Virus record (IMG/VR): IMGVR_UViG_2537561991_000022
DNA: 21,194 nucleotides
Source: a virus
Taxonomy: Duplodnaviria; Heunggongvirae; Uroviricota; Caudoviricetes
Direction: 5' to 3' (one strand)
A model generated the notes under the pieces. That model was given only the letters and a program-made list of their open reading frames with translations, did not search any database and was not told where the DNA came from. Both the position numbers and the translations under genes were made by a program. Positions 2,776 to 21,194 of this stretch are shown here, one piece after another; the first letter of the stretch is position 1, and every line of letters starts with the position of its first letter.

Positions 2776-4314
2776 TTATTCAGTCGGCAGTGCTACGCGC
2801 CAGGGGAGCAGTTCGCCGACCCGGTTTATCGGCCAGTCGGCTATGACGTCAAGGACATAGCGGAGGTAGCTTTCTGGCTCCACTCCGTTCAGTTTGCACG
2901 TCCCGATCAGGCTGTACAGCAGCGCTCCCCGCTCTCCTCCATGATCCGAACCGAAGAACAGGTAGTTTTTGCGGCCCAGACTGACCATCCGCAACGCATT
3001 TTCAGCGATGTTATTGTCCGCCTCAGCCCAGCCATCATCTGCATAGTACGTCAGCGCCGGCCACTGGTTCAGGGCGTATGCGAACGCTTTCGCCAGTTCT
3101 GAGTGTCGCGACAGGGTTTTCATCTTTTCACGCAGCCAGCTTTCCAGGGATTTCAGCAGCGGTTTCGTTTTCAACTGACGTTCGGCAAGGCGCTGCTCCG
3201 CCGTCATTCCCCTTATCTCTGCCTCGATGGCGTACAGTTCGCCGATCCGTTTCAGCGCTTCCTCCGTCAGGGCTGACGGGGTGCGAACGTGCACATCGTG
3301 GATTTTACGGCGGGCGTGAGCCCAACAGGCGGCTTCCGTTATCCGGCCATCCCGGTACAGCTCGTTGAACCCGGCGTATGCATCCGCCTGCAGTACACCA
3401 CTGAACCCCGCAAGATGGGTCTGCGGATGGATGCCTTTTCTGTCCGGGCTGTAAGCGAACAACACCGCCGGCGCCAGCGTTGACCCGGCGTTACGGTCGT
3501 CACGAACGTAGGTCCATAACCGCCCGGTCTTCGTTTTCTTATTGCCTGGCAACAGCACCGGGACAGGCGTGTCATCAGCATGGAGCTTACCGTCAGTCAG
3601 CACATAGTCCTGAAGCGCTTCTTCCAGCGGTGACAGTAGCCGGCAGCATGCATCCACCCAGCCCGACAGCAGTGAACGACTCAGCTCCACGCCCTGGCGG
3701 CCGTACATTTCAGACTGGCGGTACAGCGGGGTGTGCTCTGCATACTTTGAGATCAGCACGCGGGCCAGCAGCCCCGGTCCTGCGATACCCCGCTCGATGG
3801 GCCGTGAAGGCGCGGGGGCCTGCACGATGGCATCGCACTGAGTACAGGCATGCTTTTCACGTACAGTCCGGATAACCCGGAAGGCGCTGCGCATCAACTC
3901 CAGCTGTTCGGCGGCATCCTCACCCAGATAGCTCAGTGAGCCTCCACATTCCGGGCAGCATGATGCTGCCGGCAGCAGCCGTTTTTCATCGCGGGGGAGT
4001 GATTCGGGGAACGGTTTGCGGGTGCGGGTTTGACGCAGCGGGCGCTGCACGGCCGGGTCGTCAACCCGACCGGTAAGGGTATCACTTTCTTTCTGAAGTG
4101 CCTTCAGGTCAGCTTCCATCTGTGCGATACGACGGGAGACTTTTTCGGAGCGGCTGCCGAAGTTCATCCGGCGCAGCTTATCCAGCTGTGCCTGCAGATG
4201 GTCTATTTCGCGTTCACGCTCGTTCAGCTTTTCCAGCAGGGCACGGTTCAGCGCCTCCTGTTCGGCAAGGAGACGTTTCAGTGCATTGATATCGTCAGGA
4301 AGTGAGCTGCTCAT
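2776..4314 (-). CDS. tnpC: IS66-family transposase TnpC
   Basis: 512-aa ORF with an N-terminal coiled-coil/leucine-zipper-like region ([38 protein letters not shown]) and a CxxC...CxxC cluster, typical of IS66 transposases. Confidence 0.9.
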
Positions 4315-4362
4315 ACCGGGTATATTACCAGGCTCATTCAGCGTCGACCAGGATAAAGAGGC

Positions 4363-4710
4363 TTACAACATAGTCAGGGACGTAAGCAGTCTTTTAGGCT
4401 GCCGCCAGTCGATACCTTCCAGCAGCATCGCCAGCTGTGCCGGTGTGAGGAACACTTTGCCATCCCGGGCTGACGGCCAGGCGAAGCGGCCGCGCTCCAG
4501 CCGTTTGGTCAGCAGACACAGTCCATCGCCGGTAGACCAGAGGAGCTTTACCTGACTGCCATTACGCCCACGGAAGATAAAAACGTGACCTGACATCGGA
4601 TCGTCTTTCAGCGTCGTCTGCACCTTTGCCGCCAGGCCGTTGAAGCCGTTTCTCATATCGGTGATGCCAGCGACCAGCCAGATCTTTGTCCCTGATGGTA
4701 ATGGGATCAA
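4363..4710 (-). CDS. tnpB: IS66-family accessory protein TnpB (Orf2)
   Basis: 115-aa ORF MIPLPSGTKIWLVAGITDMRNGFNGLAAKV... matches the conserved IS66 Orf2 family from memory; sits between tnpA and tnpC. Confidence 0.85.
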   Translation of the reverse strand: MIPLPSGTKIWLVAGITDMRNGFNGLAAKVQTTLKDDPMSGHVFIFRGRNGSQVKLLWSTGDGLCLLTKRLERGRFAWPSARDGKVFLTPAQLAMLLEGIDWRQPKRLLTSLTML

Positions 4711-5111
4711 CGTTTGAGCTCCCGTATCAGCAGGTTCAGGATATTTTCGCTGATGGCACCATTCAGACGGAGTGATCCGTGCCGGAACGTCACTTCACAG
4801 CTGATATTGAGTGATTCAGGTGTCGCAGCAGCTACAGGTTGTGACCGGGGGGAGGTTGTAGGGACAACATCTTCGGCATCAAGTGTTATCGGGAGCAGCT
4901 CAGGCACGTTGTTTTCTGTTGTTGAAGGAGGACGTAGTTTTCCTTCGCGCCAGTACTGGCGCCACTTGAACAGCAAATTATCGTTGATCCCATGCTCACG
5001 AGCGAGTTGCGCTACGGAGATCTCTGGTCGATGCGAGAGTTCAACCATTTTGATTTTGAACTCAACGGGATAATTAGGGCTTTTTTTACGCACTGCGGTT
5101 AATGATTTCAT
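4707..5111 (-). CDS. tnpA: IS66-family accessory protein TnpA (Orf1, HTH)
   Basis: 134-aa ORF; overlaps the tnpB start by 4 nt (ATGA coupling) as in IS66 elements; first gene inside the right inverted repeat. Confidence 0.85.
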   Translation of the reverse strand: MKSLTAVRKKSPNYPVEFKIKMVELSHRPEISVAQLAREHGINDNLLFKWRQYWREGKLRPPSTTENNVPELLPITLDAEDVVPTTSPRSQPVAAATPESLNISCEVTFRHGSLRLNGAISENILNLLIRELKR

Positions 5112-17265: not shown

Positions 17266-17927
17266 ATATCTACGAAAGAATTGATGGCAGCAAATACCGA
17301 AATATTTGGGTAGCTGGCGACCTGCACGGATGCTACACGAACCTGATGAACAAACTGGATACGATTGGATTCGACACCAAAAAAGACCTGCTCATCTCGG
17401 TTGGCGATTTGGTTGATCGCGGTACAGAGAACGTCGAATGTCTGGAATTAATCACATTCCCCTGGTTCAGAGCTGTGCGTGGAAACCATGAGCAAATGAT
17501 GATTGATGGCTTATCAGAGCGTGGAAACGTTAATCACTGGCTGCTTAATGGCGGTGGCTGGTTCTTTAATCTCGATTACGACAAAGAGACTCTGGCTAAA
17601 GTTCTTGCCCATAAAGCAGAAGAACTTCCGTTAATCATCGAACTGGTGAGCAAAGATAAAAAATATGTCATTTGCCACGCCGATTATCCTTGTGATAAAT
17701 ACGAGTTTGGAAAGCCAGTTGATCATCAGCAGGTAATCTGGAACCGCGAACGAATCAGCAACTCACAAGACGGGATCGTGAAAGAAATCAAAGGCGCGGA
17801 CACGTTCATCTTTGGTCATACGCCAGCAGTGAAACCACTCAAATTTGCCAACCAGATGTATATCGATACTGGCGCAGTGTTCTGCGGAAACCTCACATTG
17901 ATTCAGGTACAGGGAGAAGGCGCATGA
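17262..17927 (+). CDS. ninI: NinI serine/threonine protein phosphatase (lambda-PPase, Orf221)
   Basis: 221-aa translation with metallophosphatase motifs GDLHG, GDLVDRG, GNHE; matches lambda Orf221. Start overlaps the ninG stop, so no ninH lies between them. Confidence 0.9.
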
Positions 17928-18013
17928 GACTCGAAAGCGTAGCTAAATTTCATTCGCCAAAAAGCCCGATGATGAGCGACTCACTACTGGCCACAGTTTA
18001 TTGGTTTTCGTAA
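17924..18013 (+). pseudogene. Q: Truncated remnant of lambda Q antiterminator (~24 matching codons, then foreign sequence)
   Basis: Frame [20 protein letters not shown]... matches the lambda Q N-terminus, then runs into a stop at 18011-18013; downstream DNA is AT-rich and non-lambda. Confidence 0.7.
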
Positions 18014-18043: not shown

Positions 18044-19102
18044 TTAATCTTTTATAGTGCGAAATAAATGGAGCTGGCATTCATTTCGCACTTTATGTTT
18101 TTGTTTGGACTTATTGTTATTTTGTATTGAATTCAATTCAGTTAAAAAAAGAAAGGTGATTGCTCCATTTATAAATGAATAGTCATCCCCTGTCTTGAAT
18201 TCTGATGTTACTTTATTAAATGCTAGTGTGAAGGCTACAGGTGCATACCCAATTGTTGCGCCAACTTGATATTCATCAACAGTTTTGTTTAGCGATACTG
18301 TTGTTTGTTTCGTCTGTATTGTTTTTCCTTCGAGAGTATAGTTGCGATTGACATCTCGTCTTTCCATACCTGCAAAAATCTTGTATTTGAATCCGCTTGT
18401 ATCGGACATATGCATTAAACCACGGGGAGCCAGCAGACCAAAGCCATTATCCGAATTGAAGGTTTTATCATTACCAATGGCAATGGTTGCGCCATATGCT
18501 ACATATTGAAATAAGTTTCCAGTAACAGCAGAAACTTCAGGGTATAATCCAACATTAGCACCTAAAATATCCATACTTGGTGTCATGGATAGCATCCCTT
18601 TTACAGTATAACCGTAGCGATTCTCTATTTGATCATCCCATGCATGATATTTTTCTGCCCCAATAATCTCATGAGCTTTATTTTGTACTTTCTGACCGCC
18701 TGCGTCGGGGCCAACAACACCTATGTCAGTACCTAATCGATAGCGAATCCAGTCATTCGCAAGGGAGCTCCATTCAATACCAGTGTGAGTGTATGCACTA
18801 AAAGCTCTGTCCCCAGTTACAGCTGTGTTGTGTCTTTTATTACTGCCTGATGGAGAGTAAATATCTTGCGCAATATGGAGAGATAATTGGCTCGAGTCTG
18901 AGATATCGTGGCTATATCCCAGAAATAAGCCTTGTGAGTAATCATCTCTGTTTTCATGTTTATTGCCATAAATATCATTAAGTATTGGTTGAAACTTCCC
19001 TGCATCATCATTTGCTAATGATAATGCAAGGCTGTTCGCGATAGCTGAACACGTGGTAAATGACAGAGCAATAAAGACGCCAGCGATGACACTTTTTTTC
19101 AT
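18044..19102 (-). CDS. lpxR: LpxR-like outer-membrane lipid A 3'-O-deacylase (beta-barrel) with a 33-aa C-terminal extension
   Basis: Signal peptide MKKSVIAGVFIALSFTTCSAIA; mature-numbered N9, D10, S34 and H122 coincide with the catalytic residues I remember for Salmonella LpxR; the homologous part ends ...GAITFLF at residue 319; good SD (AAGGAAG). Confidence 0.7.
   Translation of the reverse strand: MKKSVIAGVFIALSFTTCSAIANSLALSLANDDAGKFQPILNDIYGNKHENRDDYSQGLFLGYSHDISDSSQLSLHIAQDIYSPSGSNKRHNTAVTGDRAFSAYTHTGIEWSSLANDWIRYRLGTDIGVVGPDAGGQKVQNKAHEIIGAEKYHAWDDQIENRYGYTVKGMLSMTPSMDILGANVGLYPEVSAVTGNLFQYVAYGATIAIGNDKTFNSDNGFGLLAPRGLMHMSDTSGFKYKIFAGMERRDVNRNYTLEGKTIQTKQTTVSLNKTVDEYQVGATIGYAPVAFTLAFNKVTSEFKTGDDYSFINGAITFLFLTELNSIQNNNKSKQKHKVRNECQLHLFRTIKD
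18057..18108 (+). terminator. Strong hairpin with downstream T-rich tract (plus-strand intrinsic terminator candidate)
   Basis: Perfect 9-bp stem gtgcgaaat/atttcgcac (18057-18065 / 18083-18091) with inner aatg/catt pairing, then tttatgtttttgtttgg. Lies inside the 3' extension of the LpxR-like ORF. Confidence 0.5.
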
Positions 19103-19577
19103 ATGTTATTGTCTTCCTTTTTTTTGAATGGTGCGCGTATTTTACATACATGAGTTTGTAATACAAGGTGCGTAATCAATATGATGTTTTATAATTGCGT
19201 GAGACAATTGATTTATTTGTTTTTTATTGCGGTTTTTATTATCTTTTAATGTAACGGTGTTTTTATTAAGTGTGTTTGCGTGGTGTTTTATGTTTTTTAT
19301 AATTTTTATTTTATTAAATTTAAATGCATTAGTAATGGCTATTCTATATAGCAATATAAGAACTGTTACAAAAAAAGGGGGGGCAATTACAGGTAGTTAT
19401 GGATGATGAGTGAAACAGATATTGGAGAACCGGGGAATGAATGATGTCTGAGTCTTATATATCAGAACTCCTTCGCTGTCGCTGGGGGCTCCTGTGCTTA
19501 TGTCGTTTCCCCGATTCGGTTTTGAACGATTACCGAATGTTGAAGAATTATGCCAAAATATAGAAAGGATTTACTGC

Positions 19578-20267
19578 ATGAATACCCAATATTTACAGTA
19601 TGTTCGTGAGCAACTTATGGCAGCTACTGCTGACTTGAACGGAGCAACGAAAGGCCAGCTCGAAGCCTGGCAGGAGCATGCACAATTTGATACTGGTACA
19701 TACAAACGAAAGAAGCCGCGCATTCTGGATGTGGTAACTGGCAAGATGATTACGCTGGATAATACGCCGACTTCCGGTAAGCAGTCGTACGCAAAAGGTT
19801 CATCCATTGCTTTGGTCAGCCCGGTTGAATTCTCAACCTCTTCATGGCGCCGCGCGGTTTTGTCTCTCGATGAACATCAGAAAGCATGGTTGCTTTGGTG
19901 TTACAGCGAAAGCGTTCGATGGGGGCATCAGGTCACCATAACGCAATGGGCATGGAGCGAGTTTAAAGATTTGTTAAGTAACAGAAAAATTGCAGGTAAG
20001 ACACTGGATCGCCTGAAGACGTTAATCTGGCTGGCTGCACAGGATGTGAAGAGCGAACTTGCAGGGCGTGAGGCCTATGAATACCAGACACTGGCATCAT
20101 TGGTGGGAGTGACAACAAAAAACTGGTCCGAGACATTTACTGAACGCTGGGTTGCAATGAAGCACATTTTTCTACAGCTTGATAGTGATGCTTTATTGCT
20201 TGTGACGAGAACACGTTCAAAACAAAAGGCAGCATTTTTACAGCAAAATATTGCAAAACTGGATTAA
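19578..20267 (+). CDS. Putative Q-family late-gene antiterminator (long phage-82/QuuQ-type), tentative; the ORF also opens upstream at 19494
   Basis: 229-aa frame from MNTQYLQYVREQL... with AAAGGA SD; sits after the nin region and is followed by a promoter-like element and short terminator as expected for Q-pR'-tR'. Family assignment is from gene context and weak recall only. Confidence 0.4.
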   Translation: MNTQYLQYVREQLMAATADLNGATKGQLEAWQEHAQFDTGTYKRKKPRILDVVTGKMITLDNTPTSGKQSYAKGSSIALVSPVEFSTSSWRRAVLSLDEHQKAWLLWCYSESVRWGHQVTITQWAWSEFKDLLSNRKIAGKTLDRLKTLIWLAAQDVKSELAGREAYEYQTLASLVGVTTKNWSETFTERWVAMKHIFLQLDSDALLLVTRTRSKQKAAFLQQNIAKLD

Positions 20268-20280
20268 AAGCCATATACTT
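20251..20280 (+). promoter_or_regulatory. Candidate sigma-70 promoter at the 3' end of the Q-like gene (pR'-like)
   Basis: -35 TTGCAA (20251-20256), 18-bp spacer, -10 TATACT (20275-20280); predicted start about 35 nt upstream of the terminator. Confidence 0.3.
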
Positions 20281-20312
20281 CATGCAAATTTGGTATGTTG
20301 TAAAAAATGTAT

Positions 20313-20340
20313 AAACCCGCTGCCGAGTGGGTTTTTTTTA
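20313..20340 (+). terminator. Intrinsic terminator (tR'-like) downstream of the Q-like gene
   Basis: Stem aaaccc/gggttt (20313-20318 / 20329-20334), 10-nt loop, followed by a T-run to 20339. Confidence 0.5.
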
Positions 20341-20436
20341 TGCCCTGAGTTGTACTTGTACGGTAAACATGCTGGCTGCTATGTAATAGAGTTTTTTTAG
20401 CCTGTAACCTCTTGACGGCATTGAATTGCTTTTGTT

Positions 20437-20955
20437 ATGAGTTGTAAGCCAATGTTATCATCTTGTATTGGGGTGGTTATGAAGGATGGTGCGCTGCTCA
20501 GGAGTTCTTCACTTTTTATTGCCTACATGGGATGCCTTGGATGGGGGAGTGCTTATTTCTATGGATGGGGTACTTCTTTTTACTACGGCTTCCCATGGTG
20601 GATTGTAGGTGCAGGTGTTGATGATGTTGCCAGAAGTTTATTTTTTGCAGTTATCGTCATTGCTATATTTCTTATCGGTTGGGGTATTGGTGTTGTATTC
20701 TTTTTCGCAGTGAAAAGAAAACATTCTATGCAAGAGCTAAATGTATTTCGCCTTTATTTTGCTGTGGAATTATTGTTTGTGCCGGCAATTATTGAGTTTT
20801 CTATATTGAGACAGAAGATTCAGGTACCTCTTTTGCTACTGTCAGCAGCGATTGCGCTGGCGGTTACAATTTCGATAAGATCTTATGGGCGATTTTTATC
20901 GGTATCATGCTTCTATGATAAGCCATTTATAAAAAACATTTTTTTGAGATTGTGA
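20437..20955 (+). CDS. Hypothetical polytopic membrane protein (Gly/aromatic-rich TM segments); likely start at 20479
   Basis: ORF with about four hydrophobic segments (e.g. WWIVGAGV, LFFAVIVIAIFLIGWGIGVVFFFAV, LLLLSAAIALAVTISI); AT-rich; stop TGA overlaps the next gene's ATG (TGATG). Confidence 0.5.
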   Translation: MSCKPMLSSCIGVVMKDGALLRSSSLFIAYMGCLGWGSAYFYGWGTSFYYGFPWWIVGAGVDDVARSLFFAVIVIAIFLIGWGIGVVFFFAVKRKHSMQELNVFRLYFAVELLFVPAIIEFSILRQKIQVPLLLLSAAIALAVTISIRSYGRFLSVSCFYDKPFIKNIFLRL

Positions 20956-21194
20956 TGATTGCTTTTGTGGCATATTTTTGGCTTTTTTCATTTCTGACAG
21001 GATATTACAAACCACAGTTTAAGAAAGAATATGAAATGATTAATTATAATGATGGTTGGTATTATGTTCTTGCTCGTTATGATAATTGTCTGGTTTTGTC
21101 TACTTCTTTCAATGCAGGTAGTAAAAGGTTTGTCATTTATCAATCAGCACAAGATAAGAATCTTCAGGTTGATATTGTAAGGACCAGAATTTAA
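20952..21194 (+). CDS. Hypothetical small membrane-anchored protein (one N-terminal TM plus ~55-aa soluble domain)
   Basis: 80-aa ORF MMIAFVAYFWLFSFLTGYY..., coupled to the upstream gene; stop codon is the last three bases of the window. Confidence 0.45.
   Translation: MMIAFVAYFWLFSFLTGYYKPQFKKEYEMINYNDGWYYVLARYDNCLVLSTSFNAGSKRFVIYQSAQDKNLQVDIVRTRI

Follow-up and report, generated by a model that had tools for sequence, protein, structure and literature searches.

Two overlapping reading frames at the end of the window

The stretch of viral DNA analyzed here, IMG/VR record IMGVR_UViG_2537561991_000022 (21,194 nucleotides; called the window below), ends with two overlapping open reading frames (ORFs) on the plus strand. 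The first (20437..20955) comprises 172 codons and contains in-frame ATG codons at 20452 and 20479, which would give products of 167 and 158 amino acids. The second (20952..21194) encodes 80 residues from a GTG at 20952 or 79 residues from an ATG at 20955, and its TAA stop codon ends with the last base of the window. Both ORFs meet in a TGATG sequence, in which the TGA stop codon of the first ORF (20953-20955) shares a base with the ATG at 20955. An earlier note on this DNA had described them as two translationally coupled genes for membrane proteins located downstream of a terminator, and the two ORFs, their TGATG overlap and the terminator ahead of them are indeed present. The hydrophobic helices are also as described there, with a polytopic first ORF and a second ORF that opens with one hydrophobic helix. 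The comparisons reported below, however, indicate that the two ORFs are very probably the halves of one gene, which encodes a prophage membrane protein of about 238 amino acids belonging to the TfpB family (Pfam PF27470) and was split by the loss of a single A. The features of this gene are (TM, transmembrane helix):

20479..21194, plus strand: whole putative pseudogene of the TfpB family (PF27470), 238 codons once the A is restored; based on the repaired ORF, the homologues and the RefSeq label 'frameshifted'
20479..20955, plus strand: 5' fragment with TM1-TM4, seven out-of-frame residues (KNIFLRL) and TGA; based on the ORF, the alignment and the AlphaFold helices
20931..20936, plus strand: frameshift site, six A (A6) in place of the seven A (A7) of the intact gene (ATA AAA AAA, Ile-Lys-Lys); based on the DNA alignment with phage 434 and E. 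coli E2865
20952..21194, plus strand: 3' fragment with TM5 and the C-terminal beta domain in the original frame; based on the ORF and the alignment

Evidence for one gene interrupted by a one-base deletion

By megablast, positions 20280-21194 had counterparts in phage 434 and in 692 of the 5,426 complete E. coli genomes searched, and almost all matches covered 916 bases, compared to 915 in the window. Over 796 alignment columns, the window differed from both phage 434 and E. coli E2865 in a single one, where it lacked an A. Restoring the A joins both ORFs to a single one of 238 codons from the ATG at 20479 or 247 codons from the ATG at 20452, whose translation is 100% identical to that of phage 434. 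The GTG at 20952 and the ATG at 20955 are adjacent internal Val-Met codons of the intact gene (...EIVMIAF...). The phage 434 counterpart, CPT_434_68, is annotated as 'putative membrane protein' (UMO75332.1, equivalent to RefSeq WP_001302581.1 'hypothetical protein'). Its DNA is identical to that of the window except for the one A, and it has the same upstream neighbours, namely LpxR, YlcG, a Q82-like Q and the terminator; its annotated start lies nine codons upstream of the start used in the family. Two complete genomes, O145 RM8995-C1 and O111:H2 12A, are 100% identical to the window, and in both of them the RefSeq annotation (Prokaryotic Genome Annotation Pipeline, PGAP) reads "hypothetical protein, frameshifted". 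The claim that two genes are present at this position was thus not borne out.

According to the alignment, the deletion would cause a -1 shift in the loop between TM4 and TM5, and a stop codon would be met eight codons further on. The A6 allele would then yield a four-helix stub of 158 amino acids, and TM5 and the beta domain would be left as an apparent ORF of 79 or 80 codons whose internal ATG overlaps the new stop codon by chance. The TGATG overlap can therefore be explained as a by-product of a -1 frameshift that reaches a stop codon beside an internal Met codon. We consider the allele of the window to be most likely a loss-of-function pseudogene; translation of the C-terminal fragment by termination and reinitiation at TGATG would in principle be possible.

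With respect to the start codon, translation likely begins at the ATG at 20479 and probably not at those at 20437 and 20452. All homologues of 237-238 amino acids begin at a Met corresponding to position 20479, and a Shine-Dalgarno-like sequence (GGGGTGG) lies just upstream of this codon. The two upstream ATGs are not conserved in the TfpB family, and databases also use the one at 20452. No strong ribosome-binding site was found ahead of the second ORF.

Homologues of the repaired gene product

In a search of 5.8 billion proteins, 104 homologous clusters were obtained, all with a precomputed assignment to PF27470 and with a typical length of 237-238 amino acids, which shows that the sequence is real coding DNA and not a pair of chance ORFs. 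A protein about 100% identical to the repaired product (P0001) carries the same precomputed assignment, and the name "TfpB" for the family was obtained from look-ups of the genomic context. The family is small, as a profile search of 1.84 billion representative proteins gave only 73 matches. Members with a taxonomic name come from Enterobacterales, Pasteurellaceae (Actinobacillus, Gallibacterium, Avibacterium, Pasteurella, Mannheimia) and Neisseria and are all called 'hypothetical'. Full-length relatives, down to about 14-25% identity, are without exception single ORFs of about 240 codons that span the position of the frameshift, and the segment behind the break (YKPQFKKEYEMI, WYYVLARYD..LVLS) is among the best-conserved parts of the family. 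Two family motifs, AY.YGWG..YYGFPWW in the N-terminal and YKPQ.KKEY...YYVLA in the C-terminal part, are both present in the repaired ORF but divided between the two ORFs in the window as it stands. The repaired product thus has the length and architecture of PF27470 proteins, that is, a single polypeptide of about 237-250 residues with both motifs, in addition to the precomputed assignment.

NCBIfam and the local Pfam copy gave nothing meaningful for the gene product; the latter lacks the PF27470 model, so that there was no direct hmmscan match. None of the anti-phage defence models of PADLOC-DB matched at E <= 1. Searches for sequence or fold relatives of known function and for literature on the TfpB family likewise returned nothing. 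The family name may come from tfpB, an ORF of unknown function of the Moraxella pilin-inversion region, but no Moraxella member was among the matches of our family searches. A genome scan with the close alignment retrieved only 5 loci.

All families matched in PHROGs are of unknown function. PHROGs contains the full-length protein as one family (phrog_1521) and, as separate families, its halves, phrog_14371 (158 aa) and phrog_3985 (79 aa), which match the products of the split allele. An additional family, phrog_17164 (86 aa), also matches a truncated or split product of the gene at 20479-21194. None of these three short families seems to represent a distinct protein; their apparent source is frameshifted or truncated alleles. 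Loss of one base from a homopolymer can mimic a translationally coupled gene pair, and at this locus split alleles appear to have seeded separate database families (phrog_14371, phrog_3985). Apart from this, the finding is an ordinary one: RefSeq already lists this sequence with the label of a frameshifted hypothetical protein, Pfam has an entry for the family, and phage 434 carries an annotated intact copy.

Truncated members were also seen in another genus. The Avibacterium cluster of P0114 includes many shortened variants (44-199 aa) of a 240-aa member, a hint of frequent truncation in Avibacterium as well, although some of them may be contig-end fragments. The E. coli prophage protein was also encountered with 100% identity on a 3-kb contig (JAIITD010000172.1, locus L017) of a metagenome-assembled genome labelled Veillonella sp., most likely a binning contaminant.

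Frequency and authenticity of the A6 allele

A 62-base probe across the site distinguished the alleles in 680 complete E. coli genomes carrying the region: A7 was found in 664 and A6 in 16 of them, the latter including four related UTME strains. Proteins exactly matching the frameshifted products are on record in assemblies from NCBI, ENA and Logan, where 289 contigs encode the 167-aa form, 17 the 158-aa form and 411 the 79-aa form. These data establish A6 as a real circulating allele, which is not proof for the source of the window itself.

Three points weigh against our interpretation. The A6 in this particular assembly may be a homopolymer sequencing error; both fragments may be made by termination and reinitiation at TGATG and retain some activity; and the proposal for the function of the intact protein given further below is a guess drawn only from general knowledge of morons and from context. 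Under the first of these, the organism itself would have an intact gene. Losses of single bases from A/T runs are a typical error of long-read sequencing, A6 is rare among complete genomes, and its hosts are scattered. We nevertheless regard such an error as improbable because exactly the same frameshifted proteins are present on hundreds of contigs in NCBI, ENA and Logan, including the older drafts DEC12A and E128010, and because the allele is common to the four related UTME strains.

A slightly less probable alternative is that the TfpB-family protein is a stand-alone envelope factor, which might e.g. block phage DNA entry or modulate toxin release, and that the two A6 fragments, produced via reinitiation at TGATG, might reassemble into a working split membrane protein.

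We also considered that the A run might be a designed switch between full-length and split products, either by phase variation or by programmed or transcriptional slippage. The A7 run is closely followed by a T7 run, which makes the site prone to slippage, both alleles circulate, and the many shortened proteins of the Avibacterium cluster would fit such a mechanism. However, homologues do not preserve the tract: in one of 93% identity, the FIKKH peptide is likewise present, but its codons form no run of six or more A, and more distant homologues have other residues at this site. Moreover, a run of seven A is short for efficient slippage, and an A6 frequency of about 2% fits ordinary mutation. 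A designed switch is therefore very improbable, and the lack of conservation of the run in homologues points to an ordinary slippage-prone tract.

Still less credit can be given to a genuine two-gene module, in which a polytopic toxin or exclusion protein would be coupled via TGATG to a small single-helix partner. The earlier note had proposed a toxin/immunity or exclusion pair of this kind, and besides the two ORFs and their overlap, the label 'membrane protein' given to the exact split products in many assemblies and the separate PHROGs for each half speak in its favour. Yet the split allele is simply the majority allele minus one homopolymer base and occurs in 16 of the 680 complete genomes, the last seven residues of the first ORF are out of frame, and the second ORF lacks a strong ribosome-binding site. 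The half-families of PHROGs match products of the frameshifted allele, and no homologue is two-gene by design, since those of other genera, including the most distant ones, run as single ORFs over the junction. The pair reading was consequently abandoned in favour of one gene broken by a deletion.

Prophage context and position of the lysis genes

The window represents a lambdoid prophage located beside ybhC, with a lambda-type integrase, a nin region, the NinI phosphatase, an LpxR gene on the minus strand, ylcG and a Q82-type Q, and its layout matches that of phage 434. Immediately upstream of the TfpB-family gene the following features were recognized:

19578..20267, plus strand: Q82-type late antiterminator gene Q (Pfam Phage_antiter_Q, E = 1.1e-91)
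20251..20279, plus strand: putative late promoter (pR')-like sequence, TTGCAA-17-TATACT, overlapping the end of Q (consensus scan)
20313..20341, plus strand: tR'-like intrinsic terminator with a 9-bp stem (stem span 20313-20334), a 4-nt loop and a T run (terminator scan)

The mechanical ORF call for Q begins at a GTG at 19494, and in identical loci the gene is labelled 'bacteriophage antitermination protein Q' or 'Q82-like'. Promoter-like sites found in this region by the consensus scan are not more frequent than expected by chance, so that the pR' assignment of 20251..20279 is based on its location between Q and the terminator. A terminator is annotated at the matching position of phage 434 (L001 5037-5062). 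Another promoter-like sequence (TTGTTA-18-TATCAT with an upstream TG) is present at 20432-20461, just 5' of the start codon at 20479, and is again of a kind found at chance frequency; the phage 434 annotation has a match to the CII consensus at the equivalent place. Morons may have a promoter and a terminator of their own, which allow expression from the repressed prophage; for the TfpB-family gene, the site at 20432-20461 would be the candidate promoter, and the place of a terminator behind the gene is beyond the end of the window.

In phage 434, E2865 and O111:H2 12A, Q and the terminator are followed by the TfpB-family gene, a DUF3927 gene (named "TciB" in the phage 434 record), a small membrane ORF, a SASA/NanS-p-type esterase gene and then the lysis genes, which encode a class II holin, a lysozyme (RrrD) of the signal-arrest-release (SAR) type and spanins and are located 2.8-3.6 kb downstream. 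In O111:H2 12A, which is the genome closest to the window, the holin gene begins 2.84 kb past the window end, and the nearest endolysin gene is found at about 3 kb. The fact that no endolysin is visible in the window is explained by its end at the stop codon of the TfpB-family gene. The earlier doubt that these ORFs are the lysis cassette was thus well founded; a look downstream in related genomes, as the note had suggested, revealed that endolysin and spanin genes exist 2.8-3.6 kb on, not immediately after the pair, and are accompanied by a class II holin gene of their own. Its other suggestion, a check of homology and topology, led to a membrane-protein family distinct from holins (PF27470) with five TM helices, which is in accord with the doubt about a holin, but not with two separate proteins.

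In phage lambda, S occupies the first position after the late terminator, and the ORFs of the window are membrane-protein ORFs at exactly this position, but that they are the holin and antiholin genes of the prophage is the least probable of all readings, because holins are small (about 60-150 aa) with one to four TM helices and a charged C-terminus and are encoded next to the endolysin, whereas the intact product, with 238 residues, five helices and a beta domain, is too large for a holin, as the note had already remarked of its first ORF, and far from holin architecture, the true lysis set lies elsewhere, and homologues occur on plasmids or among housekeeping genes without lysis genes nearby.

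The suggestion that the locus is a moron, in contrast, agrees with our data. The TfpB-family gene lies just downstream of Q and tR', has a GC content of 36% compared to 46.6% for the window, and is variably present among related phages. It was found in only 3 of 50,697 phage records, and it lies in a region of nonhomology to 434B, where it is replaced by DLP12 prophage sequence (PMC9119081). The phage 434 genome paper states only that morons differ between these phages (PMC9119081). By base composition and by presence and absence, the gene is an AT-rich, moron-type accessory gene, and it comes first in the late operon, the transcription of which would depend on Q.

The same slot between Q/tR' and the S-R-Rz lysis genes harbors AT-rich morons in other lambdoid phages, such as stx and the nanS-p esterase genes. 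In Stx phages, the stx genes are located first after the late promoter and terminator. The gene block of the window resembles these moron blocks in that the same stretch includes a NanS-p-type SASA esterase, but differs from stx and nanS-p in that the product of the TfpB-family gene is a polytopic membrane protein and neither a toxin nor an esterase.

Predicted structure and function of the intact protein

An AlphaFold model calculated with 44 diverse sequences (predicted local distance difference test (pLDDT) score 78.3, predicted template modelling (pTM) score 0.72) contains five long helices at residues 10-36, 47-78, 89-111, 116-136 and 155-181, followed by a C-terminal five-stranded beta domain of about 55 residues (184-235). 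The intact product is therefore predicted to be an inner-membrane protein with five TM helices and a small C-terminal beta domain. Lys and Arg residues are concentrated in the loops after TM2 and TM4, which according to the positive-inside rule suggests a topology with the N-terminus inside and the C-terminus outside, so that the beta domain would be periplasmic. The residues conserved throughout the family are aromatic residues, Gly, Ala and Pro, with no polar residues of a catalytic type, and the intact protein is therefore unlikely to be an enzyme. Since, in addition, the gene stands alone in Neisseria and Pasteurellaceae, we infer that the protein acts alone in a non-enzymatic way.

Superinfection-exclusion proteins of the inner membrane, such as P22 SieA, T4 Imm and HK97 gp15, are prophage-borne, non-enzymatic and act alone. 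In our analysis, they would be the favoured functional likeness of the intact protein, but no sequence or fold similarity was detected. By analogy with such proteins, our preferred, though tentative and rather doubtful, suggestion is a role as an envelope protein for lysogenic conversion or superinfection exclusion at the periplasmic face of the inner membrane.

TfpB-family genes at other loci

The TfpB family accompanies several virulence loci of enterobacteria: the slot of prophages of enterohemorrhagic E. coli (EHEC) that is equivalent to that of stx, eltAB on plasmids of enterotoxigenic E. coli (ETEC), the Shigella plasmid pINV, and sseJ in Salmonella. In Yersinia, a TfpB-family gene directly follows Q. 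On ETEC plasmids, the family gene is located about 0.9 kb from eltAB in divergent orientation, with STb nearby. For example, pUMNK88_Ent (L015 5001-5714; also L022-L025) carries a 58%-identical family gene 867 bp from eltA, the heat-labile enterotoxin gene, and divergent to it. The spacing between eltA and the family gene is constant on many ETEC plasmids, STb and EAST1 are nearby, and exactly this protein occurs in 1,285 collection blocks. The family gene lies between insertion sequence (IS) elements on pINV of Shigella sonnei and near genes for an STb-like protein and for two-partner secretion in Klebsiella. A conserved membrane-protein family that is common in EHEC prophages and found beside major toxin loci could reward a simple genetic test.

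Chromosomal members adjoin LpxR in Citrobacter rodentium and sseJ in Salmonella, and both are situated at the same frmA-MCP-LysR locus. The Salmonella gene (L007 6001-6717) and the C. rodentium gene (L026 5001-5717) lie upstream of frmA, which encodes an alcohol dehydrogenase (ADH), a methyl-accepting chemotaxis protein (MCP) gene and a LysR gene, and LpxR of C. rodentium is split. This locus looks like an old remnant of one LpxR-Q-TfpB prophage block. In Neisseria, Avibacterium and Pasteurella, the family gene stands alone among housekeeping genes. Solitary copies of this kind indicate that the protein can do without a dedicated partner gene and has no fixed link to lysis.

Other features of the prophage

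Just inside the prophage, adjoining the lambda-type integrase gene (1418-2488), a complete IS66-family element is present on the minus strand (2776-5111), with ORFs of 134 aa (HTH_Tnp_1), 115 aa (TnpB_IS66) and 512 aa (DDE_Tnp_IS66). Since no more than 88% of the window is covered by the complete genomes closest to it, this insertion is presumably absent from them or replaced by another IS element. The LpxR gene, which encodes a lipid A deacylase, is located on the minus strand at 18044-19102 and has a GC content of 38.5%, with flanks at about 17924-18000 and 19441-19563. In homologous loci, LpxR has on one side a short N-terminal fragment left from a lambda-type Q gene and on the other ylcG and the Q82-type Q; its insertion is a mosaic junction with a second moron.
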